Shown here: piece by piece, positions 36,146-49,023 of the stretch
Layout: each line of letters opens with the position of its first letter
Position numbering within the stretch: the first letter of the stretch is position 1
Source: an uncultured Sulfolobales archaeon
Lineage (GTDB): Archaea; Thermoproteota; Thermoprotei_A; Sulfolobales; NBVN01
DNA: 64,000 nt
NCBI GenBank assembly: GCA_937949785.1
Contig: CALEDH010000013.1
Location: 7,519-71,518, forward strand
Direction of reading: 5' to 3'
Notes under the pieces: generated by a model
What the model saw: the letters and a program-made list of their open reading frames with translations, nothing else
Told to the model about the DNA's origin: nothing
The model's database searches: none
Program-made: the position numbers and the translations under genes

Positions 36146-39085
36146 TTATCTCCTCATAAACTTCCAAATAACTACTCCCACTATAGCTACTGCGATTACA
36201 ATTAACAGTATTGTAGTGTACGGTACATTACTTCCTCCAGCTAGTATGCTTGGTGATACGGTCTGAGTTATATTAGCAGGCGTACCAACCCTTATAATCA
36301 GTTCGGTAGTCACGTTCTTCGGAGTTCTCAAATTATCTAAGTATGAGATAACCACAGGTAACCGAATTATACGTTCTGAAGTGTTCATTAACTGTAGGGT
36401 TATAGTGGCTGCCGTCGTCGAACCAACATCAATATTACCTAAGTATATGGCTCTCTCTTCGGTGAGACTCCTAATAGGCAACCCCGCTATCACAGGACTG
36501 ACAAATGTTGAATACGTAGGTATAACCCCTACGTTAATTAAGGTTAGCGATACTGAGAACGTCTGACCAACATTCACCGTGGTAGGTATGACTACGTAGT
36601 CGATGACCCTTAAATCAGCCTTCCCCCTAAGCAATAACGTGAAGACCTTATCCTCACTCCTCAAACTCCCTAAAGCCTTATCTACGTAGGTAAAACTCAT
36701 TACTAGGTTCGACGTGTAGATACTTGTTAAGGACACGTAGATAGGTAAGTGTAGCGTTATTGACTCACCCGGATTTAATTTTGGAATATAGCCATCGTTA
36801 GCACCGATAATACTTAACCCAGAACCGGTTGTAATCCTATAGCTTATACCGTCTATAACATCACTACCCCTATTACTTAACCTAACCGTAACGTTATTAA
36901 CCGTAGCTATCGATAACTCGTTAACGTTTAGAGTTATATCTAAAGCACCTACTGGAGTTCTAGGCTCTACCGACACAGCGCTAGTATATGACTCACTGTA
37001 GACTTGGTTAAGTATGTCGTAGTACGTAGCTGTAAGGGAGAGCAATGCCACAGTATACGCTGTGACGGATGAGGCCTTCAAACTAATATCTACGTACTTA
37101 CTCTCCCCAGGCCTAATATCACCGATGAAGTGTTTAGATGTGTTAACCAAGGTGAGTAACGTTCCCTGCGGATTAACCGTCAACGTTAAGTCCTTAACTA
37201 AGCTATCCCCAGAATTCCTAATTCTGACCGTTAAAGTAGTGGTACTGCCTGACAGGATATGTGAAGGGGTTAATGATATGTCCAACAAAGCCTTAATCGG
37301 AATTACCTCAACTAGGTATGTGTTGGTATCAGTCTTTAAAACACTTAAAGGATCTAAGTACTTAACGTTAATGACTAGTAAGTAGGTTCCCGGCCTATTA
37401 GCTACGGCGTACGGGATATAAGTAACGTACCTCTCATTAGCTTCTAACCTACCTACCAGAACGTCCTTACTAGTGTTTAACATTAGGGGTAGTCCCTCAC
37501 CAGCTATTGAGATCTGAACGTTCCTCACATCTTCAGTGCTTATTAGTGTAAGCTTCAGCAACCCTGTTGATAACGCGTTAAATCTCCTAGGCTCTATATC
37601 CAACATTAGCACCTTACGTAACTCCTGCGGCTTAATGACTGCGGTAAAGTCATATACGTTGCTAAAGTAGTTACCTAAGTCATCAACGTAATTCACCTGA
37701 AAACCTACCCTAACGTAGGTAGCTGAGTCTACATGCGGTGTTTTAACTAAGAATTCCACACATACCGCACTACTTGGTGGGAGTACTTCCACCCTTAACT
37801 GCGGTGATGTAAGTAGTATAAAGTTTTGAGGGAATACTGACTGAACACTTATGTTTCTCAGGTTAATACTACCAACATTACTTAAGTTAAGCCTTAACCT
37901 TGTTTCCACACCGCCAGGCAGTTCTCTATCTATTAGGTCAACACTGATCAATGACTCGCGAAGAGCTCTTAAAACCACCGGTATATTAAATGTTTTTGAA
38001 CTACTTACACCGTAATCATCGCTGTAGTCCACTGTTACCGTCAGCATTGAGAGAGTATTTGATGAAGTTTGAAGCGAGCATAGCCCTACTGGTAAGGATG
38101 TGCTCGCCCCAGACCCTAAAGAATTAACTACGTATAGTGAGGTACTACATACTTGAAGTGGTTGCTGTGCAGATAACCTAATTACTAGATCCCTAGCTAT
38201 GCCGCCGTAGTTGCTTAACTTCAGATTAGCAATTAGTTGCGAACCACTTAAAATCTCATTCGAATCTAGGAAAACGTTTAAGATAGGCTTATCGTAACGG
38301 TTTACGTAGATAGTACTCTTAAACGTGGATGAGTATTGAGTGCCTGAAGGGCCGTAGTAGGTTAAAGAAGACGTTAACGTTACTGTAGAGTTCGTCAGCG
38401 ATGGAGGTATAAAAACTTCTATAGGTATGGCCACCACGTCCTTAGGTGCTAAACTATCTAATCTAACCTCAGAGGTGTTAGAATATATTGATGGTTGAAC
38501 AGACACCTCTAATTTTACCTTATTAGCTGTAGCTGTGCCATCATTAGCTAGGCCTAAGACTATTAACTGCTGCCCAGGGTAGGTTGAGGTATTATAGTTA
38601 TGTAGACTTATATTAGGTCTACCATATAAAGGTATCACTACGTAGACCTCATCACTGTAAGTCCTACTGTAGTAAAGAGCTTCGACAATATACTCTAAAA
38701 CCATTTTAGCGGTATAGCGGCCTAAAGCTATATTATCTCCAACCTTAACTTTAAACTGAAACTCTAAGACCGTACCGGCAGGTATTGAAGTACTCCCATA
38801 CCTAAGATATGCTGTGATTGATGGCTCACCGTTAACAGATGTAAACCCTCTAGGGAGTTCTAAGCGGGCTACTATAGTTTGAGACGATATTGAGTTCTTA
38901 ATTCTTAAGATTACCGTCAACGTACCTATATCGCCTGGACCAACTTCAGTAGGAGCTGAATACGAACCCCACATAACTGAGAGTACTTCAAACATGTTAG
39001 TCTGAGCTTGTATGCCGGTAAATTGGACTAACTGAAGTATGAGTAGGATAATTAGCAGAGGTATGATTAACTTAGTCTTCCTCAT
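36146..39085 (-). CDS. 979-aa membrane-anchored surface protein with at least 6 CARDB/COG1361-like beta-sandwich repeats
   Basis: Signal-like N-terminus (LIIPLLIILLILQLVQFTGIQAQ), C-terminal TM plus KFMRR. Recurrent xxLxNxGxxxxxxV motifs (LANDGTATANKV, LSNYGGIARDL, LSNVGSINLRNI, IRNSGDSLVKDL, LSNRGSDVIDGI, LINVGVIPTYS). Many N-x-S/T sequons. Confidence 0.7.
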   Translation of the reverse strand: MRKTKLIIPLLIILLILQLVQFTGIQAQTNMFEVLSVMWGSYSAPTEVGPGDIGTLTVILRIKNSISSQTIVARLELPRGFTSVNGEPSITAYLRYGSTSIPAGTVLEFQFKVKVGDNIALGRYTAKMVLEYIVEALYYSRTYSDEVYVVIPLYGRPNISLHNYNTSTYPGQQLIVLGLANDGTATANKVKLEVSVQPSIYSNTSEVRLDSLAPKDVVAIPIEVFIPPSLTNSTVTLTSSLTYYGPSGTQYSSTFKSTIYVNRYDKPILNVFLDSNEILSGSQLIANLKLSNYGGIARDLVIRLSAQQPLQVCSTSLYVVNSLGSGASTSLPVGLCSLQTSSNTLSMLTVTVDYSDDYGVSSSKTFNIPVVLRALRESLISVDLIDRELPGGVETRLRLNLSNVGSINLRNISVQSVFPQNFILLTSPQLRVEVLPPSSAVCVEFLVKTPHVDSATYVRVGFQVNYVDDLGNYFSNVYDFTAVIKPQELRKVLMLDIEPRRFNALSTGLLKLTLISTEDVRNVQISIAGEGLPLMLNTSKDVLVGRLEANERYVTYIPYAVANRPGTYLLVINVKYLDPLSVLKTDTNTYLVEVIPIKALLDISLTPSHILSGSTTTLTVRIRNSGDSLVKDLTLTVNPQGTLLTLVNTSKHFIGDIRPGESKYVDISLKASSVTAYTVALLSLTATYYDILNQVYSESYTSAVSVEPRTPVGALDITLNVNELSIATVNNVTVRLSNRGSDVIDGISYRITTGSGLSIIGANDGYIPKLNPGESITLHLPIYVSLTSIYTSNLVMSFTYVDKALGSLRSEDKVFTLLLRGKADLRVIDYVVIPTTVNVGQTFSVSLTLINVGVIPTYSTFVSPVIAGLPIRSLTEERAIYLGNIDVGSTTAATITLQLMNTSERIIRLPVVISYLDNLRTPKNVTTELIIRVGTPANITQTVSPSILAGGSNVPYTTILLIVIAVAIVGVVIWKFMRR

Positions 39086-44635: not shown

Positions 44636-45232
44636 GTGGTATCCGGAGAGTTCAGTGAAAATAATCTAAATCATAAGCAGTTAGTTAGGTGTGTGCATAT
44701 GGAGTTTAAGATTAAAGTTATAGAAAATGGAGGACTTGCAATCAACCTCACACTCCTATACTTACTTCTTAAAAGAGGTGCTCTCTTAAGAGGTCCTTAC
44801 CTATACGTAAATACTGAGCTAACCAGCATTGATGAGCTTATTAACGTAATACTTAACCATAAAGACGTTGATGTACCGACCATTAATTTCTGTCCATCAG
44901 ATGAACCAACAATGATTTACGAGGTCGATAGCTTATTAGCGAGGCTGTGTTCTGAGGTATATAAATATTTCGACGATAGGTGTGCTGCTTGCGTTGTAAA
45001 GGTTTACTCAATATTATTTGAGAGCTGGTTGTTTGATGAAGTTTCACTAATAAGGCTTTTTGAGGCCATTATCAGATACGGCTTACCTACAGAATTTAGC
45101 AACGGTAGCTTAGTAATAACTACATGCCCAGCTAACTATGAAGACGTTAGTAGATTAGCTCATGGAACGTATGTGGAGGGTATTGATTTACTCAAACGTT
45201 TTGCTAATGACTTCTTAAGCTCTAGTTTATAG
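44636..45232 (+). CDS. Hypothetical protein (orphan by eye); the real start is possibly ATG 44699
   Basis: 198-aa ORF, divergent from the RHH gene, ends 6 nt before tRNA-Pro; no motif recognised. Confidence 0.4.
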   Translation: MVSGEFSENNLNHKQLVRCVHMEFKIKVIENGGLAINLTLLYLLLKRGALLRGPYLYVNTELTSIDELINVILNHKDVDVPTINFCPSDEPTMIYEVDSLLARLCSEVYKYFDDRCAACVVKVYSILFESWLFDEVSLIRLFEAIIRYGLPTEFSNGSLVITTCPANYEDVSRLAHGTYVEGIDLLKRFANDFLSSSL

Positions 45233-45237
45233 GTTGA

Positions 45238-45314
45238 TGGTGGGGCCGCGGGGATTTGAACCCCGGACCACAGGGGCCCAAGCCCTGCATTCTACCAAGC
45301 TAAACTACGGCCCC
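45238..45314 (-). tRNA. tRNA-Pro (anticodon UGG), intron-less, CCA encoded
   Basis: Manual fold of the minus strand: acceptor GGGGCCG/CGGCCCC, anticodon stem CAGGG/CCCTG, loop CUUGGGC (UGG, G37), T-arm CGGGG-TTCAAAT-CCCCG, discriminator A, CCA at 45240-45238. Confidence 0.9.
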
Positions 45315-45400: not shown

Positions 45401-47746
45401 GTGAGGTTTAAGATGATGGATGAGTCAATAGGGCGGCTGAAGTTCTTCTTAGAGGTACTTAAGAGCCCTTTCGTAGGCCGTGATGAGGAGGCTAAAGTCG
45501 TTGTTTTAACGCTCTTAGCTAAGGAACACTGCACGTTTGTAGGGGAACCGGGCTGTGTTGTCGGGGATACGCTTATAAGTAGTTCTGATGGTAGTTTATA
45601 CCATATCGATGATTTAGCTGTAGGACTTCCTACGGGGGTTTTCCCGACAGACTTCCCCATACTCCCTTCAGCAAAGGCCACACAACTACATATATATGAT
45701 GTCGTAGATGTGGTGAGGATTTCTACATGCTTAGGTTTTTCTTTAGATGTAACCTCTAACCATCCTATAATGACTGATAGAGGTTGGGTTGAGGCTAGGA
45801 ACGTGAAGCCCGGTGATAGAGTTGTAATACTCTCTAAGCTTCCATCCCCTAACAAATTAATACGGATCCCTATTAAGGAGTCGCCCCTCAATAGTAACTC
45901 ACTATTAAACCTACACGACCTCAAATATCTAATCATAGATGAATATCTAGGTGAACTTATTGGGATGTTCTTCATAAGGGGTTATTTCAAAGATAGTTAC
46001 GTAGAGCTAGAGTTTAGGGGCGATGAGGTATTTCTCATACGTTACGTCGAAGACCTGATGAAGAAATCCTTCGGTAAAGACGTTGTAGACGTAATAAGTA
46101 GGACGACCTATAAGTCTGAGGACAGCGTTAAAGAGGTTGTGAGGCTAAATGATAAACACCTACGTAATTTATTAAAGATCTTAATATACGATGATAAAGT
46201 TATGGGAAGAGTGCCTAAACTCGTATTGAGGTCTCCTAAGAACGTTTCAGCTGCATTCTTAAGAAGTTTATTTGAGGTTTATGGAGGGTTACGCAGAGAA
46301 GTAAGGTATTCGGATGAAGGTAATTACGTGTTTTTGAAGGGGCTTAAAGCCTCTTTATTAAGAGAGATTCAAATTCTACTATTAAGGCATGGGATAATAT
46401 CGAGGATCCGACGTGTTAACAGCTCTAATAATAATGGATTGAGTAACGAGTATAAGTATATTTTAGAGATCTATGACCTAGAAAGTCTTACTAGGTTCTA
46501 CGATGAGGTAGGCTTTATCTCTAAGCATAAGAACGATGGAGTTAAGTCACTAATTAAGCTACTCTATGATAGCGTTAGCTGTAGGGGGAGGTGTAGGGAT
46601 GTAGGCAACTTACTCCTCGACTCGATCAGCGATGTGAGGGTTGTTCGCGGCTTATTTAGAGTTTACGACTTCTACATCCCTACCACGCATGCCTTCATCA
46701 CCAATGGACTGATTTCACATAATACTGCTAAATCAGCTCTAGTACGTAGGGCTGCAGACCTACTCGACGCTAAATTCTTTAAATACTTACTAACTCGTTT
46801 TACTGAGCCTGCAGAGATCTTCGGACCCTTAGATATAAGGGCATTACATGAAGGGAAATATATTAGGATAACCCACGGTAAGTTACCTGAGGCTGATATA
46901 GTATTCTTAGATGAAATCTTCAAGGCTAACTCAGCCATCCTCAACTCGCTTAACACCATACTCCAAGAGAGGGTATTATATGACGGCTACAATGAGATTA
47001 AGGTACCGCTCTGGAGTCTGTTCGGGGCAAGTAATGAGGTGCCTGAGGAGCCTGAGACCGAAGCTTTCTATGATAGATTCACGTTAAGGCATTTCGTAAA
47101 GCCTGTCAGCGAGGACTTATGGTACGACCTCCTCAGCAAGTCCTGGGACTTAGAGGTTAGGTCAAGCCTTACTGATAGTTTAAACGATGAACGTAGGGTC
47201 ATGTCGATCAATCATTTACGAGAACTACATCAAATCGTCCTAAACGTGAATACAGACCTAGTAAAAAGTAAGTTCGTTAAGCTCCTTGCAATCTTAGAAG
47301 GTAGAGGTATTCACGTGACAGATAGGAGGAAAGGGAAGACGTTGAAGGTTATAGCCGCACATGCTATGATGAACGGTAGGACTGCAGCTATTGAAGATGA
47401 CTTAATAGCAATAAAGTATGTAGTTCCGAGAGATCAGGAAGAACTAGATAAGGTCAGCACCATACTTTCAGAGGAACTTAAGACACCTTACAAGTATTTA
47501 AGGGAACTCAATGAGGTCAAAGGGAATGTTAAGGAGATATACAACTACGTGTCTTCGCTACGTAATATTGAGTCCAGATTCGTTGAGATGAGGTTTAGGG
47601 AGATATATAGGGACTTAGAAATAACTAAGGAGAGAGTGATTAGCTTAATGCTTGAAAGCAGTAATAAGGAGGTTGAGAAAGTAGCTAATGAAGTAATACA
47701 ACTTATAGATACTGTAATGGAAGTTATAAGAGGTAAGATCACCTAA
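45401..47746 (+). CDS. RavA/MoxR-family AAA+ ATPase precursor containing an intein in the Walker A loop
   Basis: Extein: VGRDEEAKVVVLTLLAKEHCTFVGEPG|TAKSALVRR...LLTRFTEPAEIFGPLDI...EADIVFLDEIFKANSAILNSLNTILQER...ASNE..E......ALYDRF-like AFYDRF. This is collinear with the RavA signature segments I know. Confidence 0.85.
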   Translation: MRFKMMDESIGRLKFFLEVLKSPFVGRDEEAKVVVLTLLAKEHCTFVGEPGCVVGDTLISSSDGSLYHIDDLAVGLPTGVFPTDFPILPSAKATQLHIYDVVDVVRISTCLGFSLDVTSNHPIMTDRGWVEARNVKPGDRVVILSKLPSPNKLIRIPIKESPLNSNSLLNLHDLKYLIIDEYLGELIGMFFIRGYFKDSYVELEFRGDEVFLIRYVEDLMKKSFGKDVVDVISRTTYKSEDSVKEVVRLNDKHLRNLLKILIYDDKVMGRVPKLVLRSPKNVSAAFLRSLFEVYGGLRREVRYSDEGNYVFLKGLKASLLREIQILLLRHGIISRIRRVNSSNNNGLSNEYKYILEIYDLESLTRFYDEVGFISKHKNDGVKSLIKLLYDSVSCRGRCRDVGNLLLDSISDVRVVRGLFRVYDFYIPTTHAFITNGLISHNTAKSALVRRAADLLDAKFFKYLLTRFTEPAEIFGPLDIRALHEGKYIRITHGKLPEADIVFLDEIFKANSAILNSLNTILQERVLYDGYNEIKVPLWSLFGASNEVPEEPETEAFYDRFTLRHFVKPVSEDLWYDLLSKSWDLEVRSSLTDSLNDERRVMSINHLRELHQIVLNVNTDLVKSKFVKLLAILEGRGIHVTDRRKGKTLKVIAAHAMMNGRTAAIEDDLIAIKYVVPRDQEELDKVSTILSEELKTPYKYLRELNEVKGNVKEIYNYVSSLRNIESRFVEMRFREIYRDLEITKERVISLMLESSNKEVEKVANEVIQLIDTVMEVIRGKIT
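45554..46723 (+). mobile_element. Intein (390 aa) with LAGLIDADG-like homing-endonuclease region
   Basis: Starts CVVGDTLISSSDG (block A), TSNHPIMTDRGWV (block B), LGELIGMFFIRGYF and AAFLRSLFEVYGG (LAGLIDADG-like), VYDFYIPTTHAFITNGLISHN followed by Thr(+1). Excision restores GEPGTAKS. Confidence 0.8.
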
Positions 47747-49023
47747 TGCCGGGGGTTCTGAAAGGCGTTAAATATGAGGACCCGTTAGTGATATACCGCG
47801 GTGAGAGGGTATGGAACTTAGCTCGGAGGTTAAGTAAGGGACGTGTTAAAGTAGATAGAGAATTAGCTACCGATATCTACTACGCTATGTATCTCCCCTT
47901 CCCCACATTAATACCCCAGACGAACATTCCGTATGGGAAGGATAGGGACTATAGTATCGTTAAGGAGTTGATCTCAAGTGAAGTATTAAAAGAGGTTAAG
48001 AGGTATACCATCATTAACTCATTAATGAGTACCCTACTCTCAGCTAGTTTTCTACAGCACCTACATGAAGAACTAACCTATGGTGGAGAGGGGGATGAGG
48101 AAGGTGTGAGCGATATTAATGACTTCGACGTTAACGCCTTAAGAAGAGCTGTAAATAACGCGTTAAAGCATGTTGAGGAGGAGGGCGGGGTAATAAAGAA
48201 CGTTGAGAAGATGTTAAACGAGGGTAGTGAAGCTGGCACAGGCACTACCTTAGACTTAGAGGAGGAAGGTGAGGATATCTTAAGGCTTGCTAAATCTACC
48301 GATGTAAGGAAGTTGCTTGAGGTGATATCATGGATTCCTAAAATTTCTCATAAGGTTAGGAGGAAAACTACTAAATCATCTAAGGGTGAATTACATGGGT
48401 ATGAGTTAGGCTCAGATGTTGAGAGGATAGTACCTACCGAACTTATCTACCCTAAACTATATTTCAACATGAAAGTGTCTGAAGGTAAGCTACTTTTATA
48501 TGATAAAGCCCTACCTGAATGTAGAGGGCCTCTCTACGTATTGCTTGATAAGTCAGGTAGTATGGAGGGCGATAAGATTAAGTGGGCTAAAGCAACGGCA
48601 ATAGCTCTGTTCATGAAGTCTAGGAAGGAGTATAGAGAGTACTTCATAAGGTTCTTTGATGGTTCACCGCATCAACTAGTTAAAATATCTAAGAGGTTGA
48701 AGAGTAGCGAGGTTCTCTCCTTCGTAGACTACTTGGCTAGGATTAAAAGCGGTGGCGGTACAGATATCACTAAGGCGTTGATGACGGCAGGTGATGACAT
48801 ACAATATGGGAGTAGTAAGGGTGTCTCAGACGTAATTCTAATAACTGATGGAGAGGATAGGATATCCGAGCATCTAATTAGGAGGAAGTTAAAAATGCTT
48901 GGAATTAAGCTAATAACGGTTATGATTATGGGGGAGAACAAAGACCTAAGAAATATCAGCAGTAAATACTTAAGAGCGACTAAGTTATCGCAGAGGGAAT
49001 TAATTCAAGTGGTTGAGGCGTAA
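47746..49023 (+). CDS. VWA-domain protein (ViaA-like partner of the RavA-like ATPase)
   Basis: MIDAS motif LLDKSGSMEG, later GGGTD and ITDGED; the start overlaps the ATPase stop (TAATG). Confidence 0.8.
   Translation: MPGVLKGVKYEDPLVIYRGERVWNLARRLSKGRVKVDRELATDIYYAMYLPFPTLIPQTNIPYGKDRDYSIVKELISSEVLKEVKRYTIINSLMSTLLSASFLQHLHEELTYGGEGDEEGVSDINDFDVNALRRAVNNALKHVEEEGGVIKNVEKMLNEGSEAGTGTTLDLEEEGEDILRLAKSTDVRKLLEVISWIPKISHKVRRKTTKSSKGELHGYELGSDVERIVPTELIYPKLYFNMKVSEGKLLLYDKALPECRGPLYVLLDKSGSMEGDKIKWAKATAIALFMKSRKEYREYFIRFFDGSPHQLVKISKRLKSSEVLSFVDYLARIKSGGGTDITKALMTAGDDIQYGSSKGVSDVILITDGEDRISEHLIRRKLKMLGIKLITVMIMGENKDLRNISSKYLRATKLSQRELIQVVEA

Follow-up and report, generated by a model that had tools for sequence, protein, structure and literature searches.

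An intein with a degenerate endonuclease domain in the Walker A loop of a RavA-like MoxR ATPase gene from an uncultured Sulfolobales archaeon

The Walker A loop, or P-loop, of ATPases is a documented hot spot for the insertion of inteins (PMC4760082, PMC4513877), and site a of MCM, site a of RFC-S and site b of DnaB are all P-loop sites (PMC4760082). One resident of this loop, PhoVMA, has lost both catalytic residues of its LAGLIDADG endonuclease and is inactive in vitro, retains the endonuclease fold, and is rescued when the acidic residues are restored (PMC8966425). Here we describe an intein that interrupts the P-loop of a MoxR-class AAA+ ATPase encoded on a 64,000-nucleotide (nt) stretch of DNA from an uncultured Sulfolobales archaeon (GenBank assembly GCA_937949785.1, contig CALEDH010000013.1, positions 7,519 to 71,518 of the forward strand). 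This whole stretch is referred to below as the window, and all coordinates are window positions. The element is, with high probability, a fixed, vertically inherited and still-splicing class-1 intein with a dead but folded endonuclease, situated at GEPG/TAKS (slashes mark splice points throughout) of a chromosomal RavA-like MoxR gene.

Literature searches pairing intein with MoxR, RavA, CbbQ or NorQ found no paper that names any of these proteins as an intein host. A preliminary description of the window, made from its letters without database searches, had suggested that the insertion may be a new intein allele. The searches bear this out as far as the literature is concerned, but more than 40 public protein clusters already contain the allele; they carry automated intein and LAGLIDADG domain hits, and NCBI names one of them 'LAGLIDADG family homing endonuclease'.

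Anatomy of the insertion and its host protein

Across its two junctions the precursor reads TFVGEPG/CVVGDTLI...NGLISHN/TAKSALVRR, with Cys (residue 52, nt 45554-45556) as the first codon of the intein and Asn (residue 441, ending at nt 46723) as the last. Deletion of the 390 intervening residues leaves a 391-amino acid (aa) product with Walker A as GEPGTAKS and Walker B as IVFLDEIFKA, and the predicted junction peptide of the ligated exteins is EHCTFVGEPGTAK. The preliminary description had placed the intein at nt 45554-46723, as residues 52-441 of a 781-aa open reading frame (ORF), and these coordinates are exact to the base. Its location of the insert in Walker A is borne out by the restored motif, which aligns with the P-loop of RavA, and the features that it listed (blocks A, B, F and G, Cys1, a terminal His-Asn and Thr+1) are all present.

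A profile and database search of the insert, proposed in the same description as a check, leads to intein and LAGLIDADG families. The insert scores 39.7 bits against Pfam Intein_splicing (cut-off 35.8) and 31.3 bits against Pfam LAGLIDADG_3 (cut-off 22.5). In a sequence search of the PDB its best match is the Pho RadA intein, aligned over blocks B and F/G at E=5e-9, and the DnaX and DnaB inteins are also matched. An AlphaFold2 model of the whole precursor, computed from a 31-sequence alignment and having a mean predicted local distance difference test score (pLDDT) of 81, places a beta-rich HINT domain and an ordered two-fold alpha-beta endonuclease domain into the AAA+ fold. The modelled endonuclease domain is a confident double alpha-beta-beta-alpha-beta-beta-alpha fold, in which helices 181-193 and 280-294, and the beta hairpins after each, have pLDDT values of about 85-95. 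Foldseek comparison of the model gives TliVMA (E=1.7e-20), PhoVMA, PI-PfuI, PI-TkoII and PI-SceI as the best PDB matches of the insert, and E. coli RavA, the MoxR protein CHU_0153 and BchI as those of the remainder. Cys1, the TxxH of block B, the Asp and His of block F, the terminal His-Asn, Thr+1 and the HINT profile and fold together identify the insert, at the level of sequence and predicted structure, as a class-1 intein.

The flanks of the insert match Pfam bpMoxR (196 bits), AAA_5 (80 bits) and AAA_lid_8 (33 bits). The spliced extein aligns with E. coli RavA (PDB 6q7l/3nbx) at E=2e-39 over residues 9-295, an alignment that pairs GEPGTAKS with GPPGIAKS and IVFLDEIFKA with IVFLDEIWKA. Against the NCBIfam RavA equivalog NF010054 the score is 164.7 bits, compared with a cut-off of 681, and only positions 7-300 of the 498 in the profile are aligned; neither this profile nor the PDB alignment, which ends at residue 295, gives any match between the host protein and the C-terminal half of RavA. 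The RavA-type host proposed earlier is therefore upheld for the AAA+ module but not for the protein as a whole, which is best described as a RavA-like MoxR-class ATPase and not as RavA proper. Because its P-loop is split by 390 aa, ATPase function is predicted to depend on splicing, as the preliminary description had also held.

Empty sites, mobility and unequal constraint

Related loci were collected by a scan of one genome per species, which gave 142 loci, of which 80 were kept for site occupancy. The kept loci all come from Thermoprotei, namely Sulfolobales and Desulfurococcales sensu lato, Pyrodictiaceae, Acidilobaceae, Aeropyrum, Thermogladius and Zestosphaera. The intein is found in 21 of the 80, each time at GEPG/C...SHN/TAKS. 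Intein-free alleles at the same P-loop site, for which an extein alignment had been proposed in the preliminary description, prove to be the majority: the site is uninterrupted in about 57 of the 80 loci and reads mostly GEPGTAKS, with three cases of GEPGVAKS and one of GEPGSAKS. The majority empty-site sequence is identical to the predicted spliced product of the window protein. At the DNA level, the joined window flanks TGCACGTTTGTAGGGGAACCGGGC and ACTGCTAAATCAGCTCTAGTACGT are colinear, codon for codon, with the empty allele of locus L017, whose extein is 74% identical to that of the window in the best aligned segment. Thr+1 occurs in all intein-bearing alleles and Val+1 is confined to empty ones, as expected since the intein would need a nucleophile at this position.

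With the extein alone as query, 739 proteins were returned at E<=1e-60. Nearly all of the best 120 are intein-free and 375-395 aa long, and the intein-free proteins among them include those of the cultured species Ignisphaera aggregans and I. cupida. On a neighbour-joining tree of the exteins the intein is patchy. It is present in the entire window clade (the window and L001-L004), in L016, in a Zestosphaera-like clade, in L005/L021 and in the isolated loci L014, L015 and L019, and absent from L017, the sister of L016, and from Z. tikiterensis (L030). Among the 80 kept loci, which come from genomes other than those of S. marinus F1 and A. pernix K1, the Staphylothermus and Aeropyrum metagenome-assembled genomes L077, L060 and L072 are intein-free. 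The InBase entries 'Smar 1471' and 'Ape APE0745' may represent the same allele.

Splicing residues are conserved well beyond the window clade. In a survey of 47 distinct MoxR intein alleles, which are 28-60% identical overall to the window copy, C1, T67, N69, H70, D372, H379, H389 and N390 are invariant (47/47). The domains of the precursor differ in their rates of change. Between the window and L001-L004, the exteins share 85-88% of their amino acids, the splicing blocks 65-74% and the endonuclease domains 43-52%. Nonsynonymous divergence (dN) and its ratio to synonymous divergence (dS), the latter ratio being rough, follow the same order in the comparison of the window with L001: dN 0.07 and dN/dS about 0.05 for the extein, 0.16 and 0.14 for the splicing blocks, and 0.35 and 0.23 for the endonuclease domain. 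Purifying selection on the host gene is strong, the splicing domain too is constrained, and the endonuclease domain is relaxed and not neutral, which fits a domain that still has to fold. That both the exteins and the VWA-domain partner encoded directly downstream are under such strong selection argues for splicing in vivo.

The catalytic positions of the window endonuclease are occupied by Arg142 (FFIRG, motif 1) and Tyr243 (FEVYG, motif 2), and both acids are lost. The preliminary description had suspected a decaying endonuclease from the first motif; the degeneracy is confirmed, but the acid is missing from both motifs and not from the first alone. Across the 47 alleles both acids are retained in 7, one in 4 and neither in 36, and the motif 1 position is Glu in only 8. 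The canonical combination of E-G and D-G is confined to P0013, P0033 and P0037, which read FVAEG or FFAEG and then FEGDG. Sequence and model together indicate that the window endonuclease is very probably inactive yet folded.

Elsewhere in the family there are signs of movement. The intein of L014 is 66% identical to those of L005/L021 at an extein identity of 53-55%, and that of L019 is 60% identical to that of L021 at an extein identity of 49%; inteins that are more alike than their host exteins point to horizontal transfer between diverged Thermoprotei. A 90%-identity protein cluster around P0013 (P0013 and P0324 versus P0320-P0333) holds both 780-aa intein-bearing and 384-aa intein-free members, and the P0013 extein aligns without gaps to the intein-free P0320 at 95.8% identity. 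This mixture indicates a presence/absence polymorphism of the intein among near-identical hosts. Judged by its intact motifs (FVAEG and FEGDG), the intein of the P0013 lineage may still be mobile. All five species of the window clade are occupied, and this clade appears to have reached the point in the homing cycle at which the intein is fixed and degenerates. The G+C content of the window intein (0.400) is close to that of the exteins (0.419) and of the window (0.413), which suggests that the element is compositionally assimilated; a recent foreign origin was considered and dropped because this composition is unremarkable.

As a separate observation, the N-extein carries Cys44 (nt 45530-45532, position -8) in a motif EHC(T/V)F before the P-loop, specific to the window clade, other clades having EHA. 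This Cys is also found in the intein-free L017 and therefore probably has nothing to do with the intein. On the same ground, the idea of a redox trap formed by Cys-8 and Cys1 was dropped.

Proposed origin, splicing route and alternatives

We propose that an archaeal P-loop-resident intein entered this gene in the Thermoprotei through endonuclease-mediated homing. In the window lineage it would then have become fixed and been inherited vertically, its endonuclease losing both catalytic acids, and it may persist because the gene is under selection and any imprecise removal would break a loop essential to it. Translation would yield an 89.6 kDa precursor with a split P-loop and no ATPase activity. 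The steps by which it could mature are the established chemistry of class-1 inteins: an N-S acyl shift at Cys1, a trans-esterification that would pass the thioester to Thr+1, cyclisation of Asn390 with the assistance of His389, and an O-N shift, which would release the ATPase with an intact GEPGTAKS and the free intein. The predicted masses of these products are 45.2 kDa for the ligated extein and 44.4 kDa for the intein, so a splicing assay by plain sodium dodecyl sulphate-polyacrylamide gel electrophoresis would not separate them.

Several points weigh against this account. From the anatomy, the empty alleles, the patchiness, the invariant splicing residues, the lost acids and the differences in domain rates, all of them observed, we infer splicing itself, the inactivity of the endonuclease and the sequence of past events. 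Splicing could also be slow or conditional, since Thr at position +1 is a weaker nucleophile than Cys or Ser would be. The Pfam intein score of the window copy lies modestly above its cut-off (39.7 versus 35.8 bits). Synonymous divergence is saturated in every comparison (dS about 1.2-1.5), which is why the dN/dS values are rough. Finally, dN in the endonuclease domain stays well under dS, and some role for it, such as support of the splicing fold or DNA binding, might persist.

One alternative concerns the reason for retention and is otherwise compatible with the account above: the intein might be kept as an adaptive conditional-splicing switch that turns on a MoxR-VWA chaperone in response to temperature, redox or another stress. 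The Pho RadA intein, which is the best PDB sequence match of the window intein, splices under the control of its native exteins and temperature, and retention in the P-loop has been proposed to modulate ATP use (PMC4513877). Such a switch has been suggested for Pho RadA and for other inteins of the P-loop. The intein is moreover retained in all members of the window clade despite a dead endonuclease, whose domain changes at less than the neutral rate. However, about 70% of the orthologues lack the intein, including the close relatives L017 and L030 with the same operon, and its persistence is explained equally well by how hard it is to delete an insert precisely from such a loop, which is essential. 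Nothing sensor-like is apparent in the sequence, and Cys-8 occurs in the intein-free L017 too. We consider such a switch unlikely. We hold equally doubtful the form of this idea in which the host would exploit a zymogen-like switch at a slow Thr+1 to control the assembly or the activity of the MoxR-VWA chaperone in these hyperthermophiles, the dead but constrained endonuclease domain being kept for that role.

A different possibility is that the window intein is still mobile and its endonuclease cuts empty alleles. The model predicts its two-motif LAGLIDADG fold confidently, its Pfam LAGLIDADG_3 score exceeds the cut-off, and related alleles bear the signs of recent mobility described above; but with Arg142 and Tyr243 the acids are replaced at both catalytic positions, and PhoVMA with the same double loss is inactive in vitro (PMC8966425). 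The occupation of all five clade species, together with an endonuclease identity of 43-52% compared with 85-88% in the extein, is the pattern of an element after fixation, and we regard continued mobility as highly improbable. Scarcely credible, in our judgement, is the idea that the insert stays in the mature protein as a domain derived from an intein, or that the locus is a pseudogene. The nearness of the window's Pfam intein score to the cut-off would suit a non-excised domain, but the splicing residues checked are invariant across alleles as little as 28-60% identical to the window copy, and Walker A matches the RavA P-loop residue for residue only once the insert is removed. Against a pseudogene stand the extein dN/dS of about 0.05, an intact and translationally coupled VWA partner, and a reading frame without stops or frameshifts.

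The locus, related inteins and described systems

A fixed and still-splicing intein, the reading that we prefer, sits in the locus laid out in Table 1. The database copy of the precursor, P0001, is 100% identical to the window protein and starts at ATG 45413, four codons after GTG 45401; this ATG is likely to be an alternative start.

Table 1. Features of the intein-bearing MoxR locus and of its surroundings in the window
Feature	Position (nt)	Strand	Remarks
Precursor ORF, MoxR (RavA-like) AAA+ ATPase plus intein	45401..47746	+	781 aa, 89.6 kDa; no stops or frameshifts
N-extein, aa 1-51	45401..45553	+	Ends with the N-terminal half of Walker A, GEPG, nt 45542-45553
Intein, residues 52-441	45554..46723	+	390 aa, 44.4 kDa; HINT domain with nested LAGLIDADG endonuclease domain
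Intein block A, CVVGDTLISSSDG	45554..45592	+	Cys1 is the first nucleophile
Intein block B, GFSLDVTSNHPIMT	45734..45775	+	Thr67-x-x-His70; includes VTSNHP
LAGLIDADG motif 1 (block C), LGELIGMFFIRGYF	45947..45988	+	Arg at the catalytic Glu/Asp position
LAGLIDADG motif 2 (block E), VSAAFLRSLFEVYGGL	46244..46291	+	Tyr at the catalytic Asp position
Intein blocks F and G, FRVYDFYIPTTHAFITNG-LISHN, ending VYDFYIPTTHAFITNGLISHN	46655..46723	+	Asp372, His379, His389, Asn390
C-extein, aa 442-781	46724..47746	+	Thr+1 first; TAKS, second half of Walker A, nt 46724-46735
Walker B, IVFLDEIFKA	46898-46927	+	Within the C-extein, as are the AAA lid and the C-terminal helical region
VWA-domain partner gene	47746..49023	+	425 aa; ATG overlaps the MoxR stop codon as TAATG
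tRNA-Pro, anticodon TGG	45238-45314	-	About 90 nt upstream of the MoxR start; sole tRNA in the window
198-aa ORF	44636-45232	+	Nothing above threshold in Pfam/NCBIfam; kept only in the six closest related loci
Antisense ORF, 195 aa	45388-45975	-	Mostly inside the MoxR/intein gene
Antisense ORF, 95 aa	46672-46959	-	Mostly inside the MoxR/intein gene
978-aa ORF	36146-39085	-	NPCBM_assoc/NEW3 and CARDB-type repeats; unrelated to the intein

The VWA gene has a weak match to ViaA (28.6 bits) and lies directly downstream of MoxR in 75 of 77 related loci, whether the intein is present or absent. MoxR and VWA form a predicted two-gene operon, in which the VWA partner is intact and, from the overlap of start and stop codons, would be translationally coupled. 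Neighbouring genes comprise an aminotransferase-like ORF, the 198-aa ORF, tRNA-Pro, TatD, an RsgA-like GTPase, desulfoferrodoxin, AsnC, NUDIX and IlvD. No propeller, the third gene of the MoxR-vWA-beta-propeller ternary system named as context in Pfam PF20030, is found among the neighbouring genes; membership of that conflict system was dropped in view of this absence and of the housekeeping surroundings. In all likelihood the two antisense ORFs are spurious and only shadow the coding strand, and the 978-aa ORF looks like a large surface or S-layer-type protein. No further intein was found among the large ORFs checked in the window.

An exhaustive HMMER search with the intein, covering 1.84 billion representatives, returned 2276 proteins at E<=1e-3. 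Outside the orthologous genes, the inteins nearest to that of the window, with an identity to it of 33-35% for those in CbbQ/NorQ-type MoxR, Cdc48 and LonB, reside in a CbbQ/NorQ-type MoxR (P0057, GPSG/TGKS, 34% identical to the window intein), in Cdc48 (P0058, P0043 and P0044, GPPG/TGKT), in MCM (P0061 and P0047, GDPG/TAKS, the known site a), in RadA (P0062, G/SGKTQ), in a probable LonB recognised by its P-loop motif only (P0200, GEPG/TGKS) and, outside the P-loop, in several ribonucleotide reductases (NP/CGE). The inteins of P0043 and P0044 are 44-46% identical to the P0037/L019 alleles. Ribonucleotide reductase aside, these inteins all occupy the same point of the P-loop, in agreement with the published hot spot.

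P0057 is a 1069-aa protein with AAA_5 and CbbQ_C domains and two inteins, one of them in the P-loop at GPSG/C...HN/TGKS. This P-loop intein indicates that a second MoxR subfamily has also been invaded.

The hosts at the Walker A hot spot now include a chaperone-type MoxR/RavA-like ATPase and, through P0057, a CbbQ/NorQ-type ATPase, and the P-loop rule thereby reaches past the genes of replication and repair. Stages of the homing cycle can be seen in one gene within one archaeal class, from empty sites through a polymorphic stage with intact motifs (P0013) to fixation with a dead endonuclease, the stage to which the window clade appears to belong, and the allele family is a convenient comparative set. 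The P-loop inteins of MoxR, Cdc48, MCM and the LonB-like protein likewise form a natural series for the study of ectopic jumps between paralogous Walker A sites. An apt annotation of the window gene is intein-containing MoxR ATPase, and not 781-aa 'AAA family ATPase' or 'LAGLIDADG homing endonuclease'. The general understanding of inteins or of MoxR proteins is unchanged by the window intein.

Among described elements, the site-a inteins of MCM (CDC21), for example Pab and Pho CDC21-1 (PMC6801210, PMC4760082), occupy the same point of Walker A as the window intein. The archaeal ones are class-1 inteins with a nested LAGLIDADG domain, as in the window, and are homologous to it at about 30% identity; in contrast, their host is a replicative helicase, and the low identity marks them as a separate allele in a separate gene. 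The Cdc48 intein of P0043 has better LAGLIDADG motifs (FIAEG and FEGDG) than the window copy, as does the P0058 family by Pfam score. PhoVMA and TliVMA (VMA-b site; PDB 7qst, 7qss, 7qsu; PMC8966425) are P-loop residents and the best structural matches to the window model, and PhoVMA shares with the window intein the loss of both LAGLIDADG catalytic residues, by analogy with which the window endonuclease would be inactive. The VMA inteins differ in their host, the A subunit of an A/V-type ATPase and not an AAA+ protein, and in their low identity to the window intein (18-19%); they also carry an accessory domain, for a counterpart of which no search was made in the window intein.

The Pho RadA intein (PDB 2lqm/4e2t; PMC4513877) is, like that of the window, a P-loop insertion in an ATPase of a hyperthermophile. 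It differs as an endonuclease-free mini-intein in a RecA-fold recombinase whose conditional splicing was shown experimentally, whereas the window intein is known from sequence. On the side of the host, E. coli RavA-ViaA and NorQ-NorD (PDB 3nbx, 6q7l; PMC9976466) have in common with the window locus the operon layout of MoxR followed by VWA. These bacterial pairs are intein-free, and in place of the C-terminal half of RavA the window host has a C-terminal helical region. Set beside these systems, the window intein is an ordinary P-loop intein of archaea whose endonuclease has degenerated, and its MoxR host is one that the searched literature does not name.

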